Sequence record: PQ738613
DNA length: 34,674 nucleotides
Origin: Escherichia phage PhiKM
Direction: 5' to 3' (one strand)
Under the pieces are notes generated by a model. That model was not told where the DNA came from. It did no database searches and was given only the letters and a program-made list of their open reading frames with translations. Position numbers and translations under genes: made by a program. Shown here piece by piece: positions 19,287-21,129 of the stretch (positions are counted from its first letter, which is position 1; every line of letters starts with the position of its first letter).

Positions 19287-20246
19287 ATGGGAAACCTGAA
19301 TGAAACAGAAAAGTGGGAAGAAAATATCTATCAACTGGAGACATCAGATCCGGTTCTGGGTGGTGCAGACGGGATATCAAATCGAGCCCCCCGGCAACTG
19401 GCAAACAGGACGAAATGGCTGAAGAAGAAAACGGAGGAAGCCGCACAGTCACTGGCTGAACACGTACGTTCCCGTAACCACCCGGACGCGACACTGACAG
19501 CTAAGGGGTTCACCCAACTGAGCAGTGCCACCAACAGCACCTCTGAAACGCTGGCCGCCACACCAAAAGCGGTCAAGGCTGCATACGACCTGGCAGCCGG
19601 CAAGGCGCCTGCCAGCCACACTCACCCGTGGAGTCAGATAACGGGAGTGCCTGCGGCTTCACTGACGGCAAAAGGCACCGTACAACTGAGCAGCGCCACG
19701 GACAGTCAATCAGAAACTGAGGCTGCCACGCCGAAGGCGGTCAAGGCTGCATACGACCTTGCAGCCGGCAAGGCGCCCGTCAGCCACACTCACCCGTGGA
19801 GTCAGATAACGGGAGTGCCTGCTGCCTCGCTGACGGCAAAAGGCACCGTACAATTGAGCAGTGCCATCAACAGCACGTCTGAAATACTGGCCGCCACACC
19901 GAAAGCGGTCAAGGCTGCATACGATCTGGCAAACGGAAAACAACCGGCAGATGCCACGCTCACTGCTCTGGCAGGACTTGCCACTGCAGCAGATCGGTTG
20001 CCTTATTTTACCGGAGCAGACCGCGCAGAGCTGGCAACCCTTACAGCTATTGGTCGCGCTATTATCGCTAAGGGCAGTATAAAAGATGTCCTCAATTACC
20101 TTGGTTTGGGGGAAGGCTCGGCGCTGCCCGTTGGTGTACCTGTTCCGTGGCCCACTGCCACACCGCCAGCAGGCTGGTTAAAGTGCGACGGGCGCGCCTT
20201 TACAAAAGAACAATATCCTGTTCTGGCCAGAGTACAATGCCTTTAA
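19287..20246 (+). CDS. tail fiber protein, N-terminal portion with three 56-aa repeats; apparently 3-prime truncated
   Basis: ATG 19287 with SD GGGAG; contains tail-fibre repeat motif (TPKAVKAAYDLA...SHTHPWSQITGVPAAS) three times and the conserved PAGWLKCDGRAF region, then ends abruptly (YPVLARVQCL-stop) where homologs continue; no tail fiber assembly gene follows. Confidence 0.7.
   Translation: MGNLNETEKWEENIYQLETSDPVLGGADGISNRAPRQLANRTKWLKKKTEEAAQSLAEHVRSRNHPDATLTAKGFTQLSSATNSTSETLAATPKAVKAAYDLAAGKAPASHTHPWSQITGVPAASLTAKGTVQLSSATDSQSETEAATPKAVKAAYDLAAGKAPVSHTHPWSQITGVPAASLTAKGTVQLSSAINSTSEILAATPKAVKAAYDLANGKQPADATLTALAGLATAADRLPYFTGADRAELATLTAIGRAIIAKGSIKDVLNYLGLGEGSALPVGVPVPWPTATPPAGWLKCDGRAFTKEQYPVLARVQCL
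19493..19925. repeat. tandem 168-bp repeat, about 2.6 copies, inside tail fiber gene
   Basis: Near-identical units starting 19493, 19661, 19829 (for example gcggtcaaggctgcatacgacc recurs at 19569, 19737, 19905). Confidence 0.85.
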
Positions 20247-20249
20247 TCT

Positions 20250-20544
20250 GCAAATTCTTACGCTGATTGTGATCCACCAGCGTGATGCTGTCGCCCGGCT
20301 GCACGTTGAGGCGTTCCGCCAGTTTGACGCCGATCATCGCATTACGGTCGTCAAAACTAACGCCAATCCAGCTACCGGTGACCTGCCAGTACGGCACCAG
20401 TTTTTGCAGCGACTCGAACCACACGCCAACCATCACCACTTTTTCCAGCTCGGTACGCGCCATGCCGTACAACCACGGACTGGCGCCATGCACCAGCCCC
20501 TGCGGCGCCTGATCGAGAATGCTCTGCAACTCCTGCTGCGGCAT
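20250..20544 (-). pseudogene. fragment of a non-phage gene; region reminiscent of the periplasmic domain of FtsX-family (LolC/LolE/MacB-type) ABC permeases
   Basis: Minus-strand ORF lacks phage context; motif pattern IGVKLAERLNVQPGDSITLV resembles the conserved periplasmic-domain segment of LolC/LolE as remembered; no intact gene is present. Confidence 0.25.
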
Positions 20545-20739
20545 ACTGGAACCGTGCCCCGGCCCGATGTAAAAATTGATTAGACTTGAGATAAATGACA
20601 GGGAATAAGTGAGATATTTATGGGAAGAACTGGGTCAAAATGGGAAGAGACTAGGAGGAATATGCAATAACCTTACAGTATGTGAAAATCAGACCGGCCC
20701 GAAAAAAAAACAGAACTCGCGCCAGCCTGATTGCAGATA

Positions 20740-21129
20740 TTACTCTTTTTTCTCCGTATCTGCATCGGGTTCATCAGCAAATAGCTTGCCCTGCATCCGA
20801 TCCAGTTCTTCTTTTCTTACCCGCTTAACCACGCTGTAGACCCACTGAAGCGAAACACCAAATTTGCGGGCCAGTTCGTGGTGGTTGCGTCCGTTAAACT
20901 CCCTGAAGATTTCCCGGTCGCGCTGACTGACCTTCCATACCATGCCCATCGGGAAATAAACGTTTTGCCCGCCCCAGACCTGCATCATTCGGTTCGCGAC
21001 GGCCTGACCAATCTGGTCGGCAACTTCGGGCTCAATATCAATAATCTCGCGAACGGTCTCAGAGGTATGCTGTGCCAGTTCCACCAGGAGTTCCGGCCCC
21101 TTACTTCGAAACTGATTCAGGTCGCTCAT
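20740..21129 (-). CDS. mor: Mor/C-family transcriptional activator (middle/late operon regulator)
   Basis: 129-aa ORF, SD GGGAG; strong resemblance to Mu Mor C-terminal region (GGQ.VY.P.G...FNGRN..EL...GVS..WVY...KR.R). Confidence 0.85.
   Translation of the reverse strand: MSDLNQFRSKGPELLVELAQHTSETVREIIDIEPEVADQIGQAVANRMMQVWGGQNVYFPMGMVWKVSQRDREIFREFNGRNHHELARKFGVSLQWVYSVVKRVRKEELDRMQGKLFADEPDADTEKKE

Follow-up and report, generated by a model that had tools for sequence, protein, structure and literature searches.

Circular writing of a linear draft scaffold as the probable source of a tail fibre–mor junction in the Escherichia phage PhiKM record

Genes and features between the tail fibre and mor

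The window analysed here is the whole stretch of 34,674 nt recorded for Escherichia phage PhiKM (PQ738613). In this record, a tail fibre gene on the plus strand and mor on the minus strand point towards each other across a short stretch of DNA with a permease-like reading frame. A first-pass annotation had described a fibre frame that stops at 20246 with no assembly gene behind it, a minus-strand segment of an FtsX-type permease, the end of mor at 20740 on the minus strand and a gap of Ns elsewhere. The list of reading frames, Pfam searches, a search of the window and an exact plasmid match place all four of these where they had been described. The features referred to in the text are as follows.

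1..2, no strand: rotation cut of the record; 34674 and 1 are contiguous in reference prophages
13435..13534, no strand: 100-N scaffold gap in the tape-measure gene; both edges coincide with k = 77 graph-edge ends
19287..20233, plus strand: first 316 codons of the tail-fibre gene; 100% identity to ST131 prophages up to 20233; Pfam Phage_fiber_2 and Collar
20098..20233, no strand: partial left arm of the inverted repeat flanking the invertible fibre segment, from the reference repeat arms and their alignment
20157..20233, no strand: last 77-mer of the contig; the fibre repeat and its inverted copy have this as their first exact 77-mer in common
20200..20544, minus strand: chimeric, permease-like reading frame with a weak Pfam MacB_PCD match
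20233..20234, no strand: probable artificial abutment of two scaffold ends, closing the circularised record; absent from the collections searched
20234..20576, minus strand: 343 nt from within an ABC transporter (MacB/FtsX-type) permease gene; exact match to pUM146
20571..20576, no strand: predicted target site AAAAAT, from the 6-bp duplications at ycaL and yahI, in a window without the right end
20577..20739, no strand: phage left end (attL side); 100% identity from 20577 on with the strain 4/4 prophage
20740..21129, minus strand: mor; Pfam Mor 1.3e-43; Mor family annotation in identical references

The fibre frame (19281/19287..20246, plus strand) matches Pfam Phage_fiber_2 (1.5e-56) with three repeats, contains half a Collar domain and ends in '...PAGWLKCDGRAFTKEQYPVLARVQCL*'. 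Its first 316 codons cover the constant part of the fibre and the beginning of the invertible-segment repeat, and they are followed by three junk residues and a stop codon (20244-20246) that arises from the apparently artificial join at 20233|20234. In prophages of complete genomes that are 100% identical to the window, the fibre frame runs on to 415 aa, and the assembly genes, an invertase and the right end come after it. A tail-fibre assembly gene, an invertase and the right end were not found within the window. In total, 2,628 nt are missing, which hold the fibre C-terminus, the alternative fibre exons, the assembly genes, the invertase and the right end. RefSeq lists the tail fibre of the ST131 prophage as pseudogene fragments despite its uninterrupted 415-aa frame from ATG, as seen in JJ1886 (L005 20588-21835) and in the same region of E41-1.

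The reference prophages contain a complete Gin/Hin-type invertible segment, with a serine recombinase, inverted repeats and alternative 3' exons of the fibre. In the window, only one partial repeat arm (20098-20233) is present, and the recombinase and the other arms are absent. The arms measure 229-231 nt in the reference prophage, of which the window keeps the first 136 nt of the left one. Similar to the G segment of Mu and the C segment of P1 (Gin/Cin), the reference prophage has a constant 5' part of the fibre, then inverted repeats and a serine recombinase gene, with alternative fibre 3' exons and their assembly genes on both strands. It differs from these in having three repeat arms instead of two (L002 38850-39078, 39287-39517 and 40671-40901), which allows for more than a single inversion.

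At the outer edge of the fibre repeat, around 20097-20106, lies ACCTTGGTTT, which we take to be a putative hix/gix-like core. Its surroundings, ...CAATTACCTTGGTTTGGGGGAAGG... (window 20085-20125), presumably resemble the ACC-NN-GGTTT core of hix/gix/cix recombination sites. This putative site is an orphan in the window, since the invertase and the partner sites are unassembled. Invertase-mediated recombination was considered as the cause of the break in the fibre gene and rejected, as the hix-like core is situated about 125 nt upstream and the break fits a k = 77 geometry described below. A headful-packaging end at 20233 was also discarded, because 34.7 kb is shorter than the 37.0-kb genome.

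On the other side of the interval, mor is the last gene of a leftward early/middle operon, with its 3' end at 20740. A consensus scan revealed no terminator of the early operon between mor and the phage left end. Between the left end and the fibre, positions 20234-20576 are an exact 343-nt match to an annotated permease gene of plasmid pUM146 (L001 4011-4353). The chimeric frame 20200-20544 reaches Pfam MacB_PCD with E = 0.0026 and 18.5 bits, under the curated cut-off of 27 bits, and only an internal 343-nt piece of a MacB/FtsX-type permease is present rather than a complete one. In pUM146, the neighbours of this gene are an FTR1-family protein, an 'iron transporter', an Fe-S-containing protein, two permeases, an ATP-binding protein and a TlpA-family reductase. 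This permease locus of IncF plasmids was found in 836 of 5,426 complete E. coli genomes, almost always plasmid-borne and usually in single copy.

A circular permutation of a known ST131 prophage

The window corresponds to a circularly permuted 37,045-bp Mu/BcepMu-like transposable prophage which is common in E. coli ST131, the length being that of an IS-free reference. Except for the 343 nt and the N run, the whole window is 100% identical to reference prophages. Positions 1-13434 and 13535-20233 share 100% identity with the JJ1886 prophage, and 20577-34674 plus 1-1726 share 100.000% identity with the strain 4/4 prophage from its left end. Bases 34674 and 1 are neighbours in the reference prophages, as their comparison with the window demonstrates. 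The record starts 2 nt upstream of the ATG of the DUF3486 (Mu gp27-like) gene, which suggests a deliberate rotation to a terminase-type start. In the copy of strain E41-1, the gene 3' of the DUF3486 gene carries an ISEc23 (IS66-family) insertion (L002 17054-19470), presumably inactivating; the window copy of the same prophage, unlike that of E41-1, has no IS. Since the ends of the window abut in the reference, the record represents one phage copy written circularly.

Prophages with the DNA from about 20577 rightwards occur in 641 of the 5,426 complete E. coli genomes searched, in which 706 places of the phage were found. In ST131, the prophage is situated between ycaL and aroA (JJ1886, E41-1 and strain 4/4), shares 100% nucleotide identity with the window over 34.2 kb of phage DNA and has the same gene order from the left end through the fibre. 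The two differ at their limits: the left end of the ST131 prophage adjoins ycaL, whereas that of the window adjoins the permease gene of an IncF plasmid, and the ST131 prophage has the last 2,628 nt, which the window record lacks.

The map of the ST131 prophage begins on the minus strand with the left end, mor, gemA, gam, an AAA ATPase and a DDE transposase, followed by the repressor region. The lysis, head, tail and fibre genes then follow on the plus strand, and the map closes with the invertible fibre segment, containing the assembly genes and the serine recombinase, and the right end. Pfam matches to the rve transposase, Mor and GemA in the window identify it as a Mu/BcepMu-like transposable phage; the ExeA/AAA ATPase and Gam are annotated in the 100%-identical references. 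This layout is of the BcepMu/KS10 type, in which the early region is inverted relative to Mu. For BcepMu, such an inversion was reportedly described by Summer et al. in 2004. The early region of KS10 is likewise inverted relative to Mu (PMC2628397).

Because mor is located at the left terminus of this linear map and the fibre near the right terminus, the 'convergence' of mor and the fibre is a product of the circular representation and no biological structure. The convergence of late and early operons reported by the first-pass annotation arises from writing a linear phage as a circle. Its proposal of a boundary between two tandem or nearby insertions is not supported, since the abutting window ends represent a single copy.

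The left end and its junction with plasmid DNA

The phage terminus is base 20577, where the phage begins with 5'-TGATTAGAC, or 5'-TGATTAGACTTGAG in a longer reading. Flanking DNA varies among the 641 genomes right up to window positions 20573-20577, and ycaL, hycE, DUF2207, LysR-type, exonuclease and integrase genes are found at the left-end flanks, that is, many unrelated insertion sites. This variation of the flanks up to 20573-20577 shows that a transposable phage ends at 20577. In strain E41-1, the junction with ycaL confirms that the phage ends at this base. Prophage/host junctions of Mu share the same arrangement, with a 5'-TG terminus fused precisely to unrelated host DNA and with sites that vary among genomes.

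At the left end, the terminal 5'-TGAT is followed by GATAAATG-type motifs at 20590 and 20613 and by ATGGGAAGA repeats at 20620 and 20640, all of which are candidate transposase-binding sites. The left end can be aligned with the reverse-complemented right end and with a related phage. The left end, TGATTAGAC...GATAAATG, and the reverse-complemented right end, TGATGCGCC...GATAAATG, form imperfect terminal inverted repeats, and the phage thus reads 5'-TG...CA-3', with the right-end sequence taken from the reference only. The Mu-type terminal inverted repeats that the first-pass annotation proposed to look for near 20550-20740 are accordingly there, as a left end at 20577 which aligns with the reference right end. 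Of the roughly 500 bp that it regarded as foreign, 343 nt (20234-20576) are foreign, and 20577-20739 is the phage's own left end.

Judged from the exact plasmid match, 20234-20576 appears to be host DNA flanking the phage left end. The right edge of these 343 nt abuts the terminal TG of the phage, which is the signature of a Mu-type insertion, and 20576|20577 looks like a genuine Mu-type transposition junction, in which the terminal TG of the phage is joined to the permease gene of an IncF plasmid. It would be the single real feature of this interval. The left host flank of Mu is 50-150 nt long, and Mu duplicates 5 bp of its target. The flank in the window, at 343 nt, is longer than that of Mu. 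A related contig obtained from a lysate, Phi06_2974 B, has 54 nt of host sequence to the left of the same TGATTAGAC end.

In the family of the window's phage, the target duplication of the references is 6 bp, compared with the 5 bp of Mu. It is TTCTTC at ycaL (L009 14995-15000; L005 24163-24168), and at the yahI insertion the flanks overlap by 6 bp (CFSAN061763 3783786-3783791). By analogy with these two sites, AAAAAT at 20571-20576 should be duplicated at the unassembled right end of the window phage. If the phage was inserted in the plasmid with a 6-bp duplication, the junction at its right end is predicted to read '...GCGCATCA|AAAAATTCGCGCC'.

No independent occurrence of the 20576|20577 junction was found in the 5,426 complete E. 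coli genomes, PLSDB, INPHARED, IMG/VR, GTDB genomes and JGI metagenomes. None of the 706 places of the phage in complete E. coli genomes is a genuine plasmid-borne copy. A single place among them bears the label 'plasmid', and it is most likely a spurious contig of E. coli JCH8249, to judge from a JCH8249 record that is called 'plasmid' in the same collection. The plasmid site would have been the resident or predominant site of the phage in the sample. The phage itself is the already known ST131 prophage, and its left-end/host junction is ordinary Mu biology. The biological gain is small: a phage frequently found in the chromosomes of ST131 has its true left end fused to a gene of an IncF plasmid. 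If the plasmid is the resident site, the phage could spread by conjugation.

Contig ends and the join at 20233|20234

A k-mer analysis of the JJ1886 locus for exact repeats of at least 77 nt revealed two pairs only. The first pair, within the tape-measure gene, is a direct repeat of 79 nt (L005 14573-14651 and 14834-14912), and the second is a 140-nt exact inverted repeat in the fibre segment (L005 21458-21597 / 23250-23389). In a de Bruijn graph, a contig that enters a repeat stops with the first shared k-mer, and a contig that leaves it starts with the last one. Position 13434 corresponds to L005 14649, i.e. 14573+76, and is where the first 77-mer common to both copies of the 79-nt repeat ends. 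Position 13535 corresponds to L005 14836, i.e. 14912-76, and is the start of the last shared 77-mer in the second copy, so that the 100 Ns stand in for 186 nt between the two exact copies. The fibre identity stops at 20233, which corresponds to L005 21534, i.e. 21458+76, and is the end of the first 77-mer common to the two copies of the 140-nt inverted repeat.

The contig ends at 13434, 13535 and 20233 thus each agree independently with k = 77, as a de Bruijn graph would leave them. Since the edges of the N gap are exact k = 77 ends, they identify the k-mer size of the assembler; for reads of 150 nt, SPAdes goes up to k = 77 by default. Because three ends fit k = 77 to the base, 20233 is a contig end of the assembler and no biological end of a gene. 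The missing 2,628 nt are apparently unassembled rather than deleted. The fourth scaffold end, 20234, is off any known repeat. No repeat or structural breakpoint was detected at the equivalent of 20234 in plasmids, where 841 of 842 records are intact across this position. Coverage may have run out at this end, for instance where host DNA carried along with packaged phage DNA stopped, or the graph may have branched in a way specific to the sample.

The explanation we favour, and with considerable confidence, is that the record is a short-read draft scaffold of the known phage which was circularised and rotated, and that its scaffold ends 20233 and 20234 were thereby placed next to each other. 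Short reads would have been assembled with k = 77 by a SPAdes-like program, and the record rotated to a small-terminase-like gene. The linear order would be the plasmid flank (20234-20576), the left end at 20577, the early, lysis and head genes up to 34674|1, and then the tail genes, the N gap and the tail fibre to 20233. There, the 140-nt exact inverted repeat would have blocked the assembler and left the last 2.6 kb of the phage on other contigs. Reads at 20233 are predicted to continue with 'CTACCCGACCCTCCG...' into the invertible segment. The rotation of a linear scaffold, and not another joining step, would then have made the abutment.

At the join, the fibre identity stops at '...GGCCAGAGT' and the plasmid identity begins with 'ACAATGCC...'. 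The join 20233|20234 was not found in the 5,426 complete E. coli genomes or in PLSDB, INPHARED, IMG/VR, GTDB genomes and JGI metagenomes, and an exact look-up of the chimeric frames 19287-20246 and 20200-20544 returned none on record. Beside the join, a 10-nt patch has 8 matches, TgGCCAGAgT in the fibre and TcGCCAGAcT in the plasmid, for which we roughly estimate a chance probability of about 0.005. The BLAST match of the plasmid extended back to 20226 through this imperfect patch. There is no clean microhomology at 20233|20234, and the join is not a clean crossover inside the patch. The 8/10 patch could hint at a microhomology-guided event.

Such an event might have taken place in vitro, with the join carried by chimeric reads (template switch or ligation chimera) and the cycle closed by the assembler itself. 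The imperfect similarity patch adjoining the join and the circular form of the record would both agree with this. However, a chimera is possible anywhere, yet the join falls on a k = 77 end just like both edges of the N gap, and it is made without a clean microhomology crossover. We therefore regard chimeric reads as an improbable source of the join. The same reasoning applies to any real junction: the join lies exactly at a k = 77 edge, though real or chimeric junctions could fall anywhere, which makes abutted scaffold ends the simplest explanation.

An event in vivo would involve illegitimate recombination of the fibre gene with plasmid sequence 343 nt to the left of the left end, giving a 34.7-kb circle or the junction of a tandem duplication. 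The real-looking junction of left end and plasmid, break points in direct orientation on a putative plasmid::phage molecule and the similarity patch at the join would all be in line with a plasmid-borne prophage as its origin. The heterogeneous circles of Mu and host DNA that Waggoner et al. are said to have described in 1974 from lytic growth are loosely comparable. However, in circles of the Mu type host DNA is linked to the right end, which the window lacks, and the break occurs exactly at the end of a k = 77 graph edge. Moreover, a circle of this kind lacks any function for replication or maintenance and would not become predominant in the sample, and the junction is in none of the collections searched. 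Taken together, we consider an in-vivo origin of the join very unlikely. A circle from intramolecular transposition of the Mu type was rejected, as it would join host DNA to the right end absent here. A physical circle or tandem derived in vivo from a phage transposed into the IncF plasmid and broken within the invertible-segment repeat of the fibre gene, a Mu-type phage-host circle without its right end, seems very unlikely to us.

A defective prophage, with its right 2.6 kb deleted and replaced by plasmid DNA and a second phage copy behind it, would give the order of fibre, plasmid and left end seen in the window, but it is extremely unlikely: the window ends abut in the phage map, as expected for one copy in circular form, the coincidence with k = 77 is left unaccounted for, and 0 of the 641 phage-carrying genomes have this arrangement.

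With regard to the first-pass annotation, its suggestion of an assembly misjoin came closest to the truth, with the correction that scaffold ends were abutted and no overlap was misassembled. Its suggestion of a prophage end or host junction where the 3' end of the fibre is deleted holds in part, for 20576|20577, a true Mu-type end/host junction, while the fibre 3' end is apparently unassembled at a k = 77 end and not deleted. More generally, writing the draft scaffold of a transposable phage as a circle produces spurious 'convergent' junctions, tail fibres that only seem truncated, and chimeric reading frames. The frames 19287-20246 and 20200-20544 are unfit for annotation or for inference of host range.

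A comparable circle is found in NZ_CP132021.1 ('plasmid unnamed', E. coli JCH8249; 40,540 bp), where, as in the window, a linear prophage with its flank is written in circular form and unrelated ends abut. It differs from the window in containing a complete prophage with flanks on both sides, whereas in the window the right end is missing and the flank is one-sided. The prophage in NZ_CP132021.1 is a related Mu-like one with chromosomal flanks of 2.8 kb on the left and 2.2 kb on the right (yahG-fdrA and yahI-yahJ), the distal ends of which are joined at the origin of the record. In the chromosome record of the same strain, NZ_CP132020.1, no more than about 1.4 kb of the prophage is left, spanning the origin of that record. 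This finished RefSeq genome probably contains an artefact of its assembly. In addition, OM835952.1 (Klebsiella phage KP12 clone KP12_2), a 34.9-kb partial record filed under Vequintavirinae, is Mu-like, with about 87% identity to the window. Its first base lies about 45 nt inward from the left end, and it is probably an induced host prophage that was co-sequenced with the named phage.
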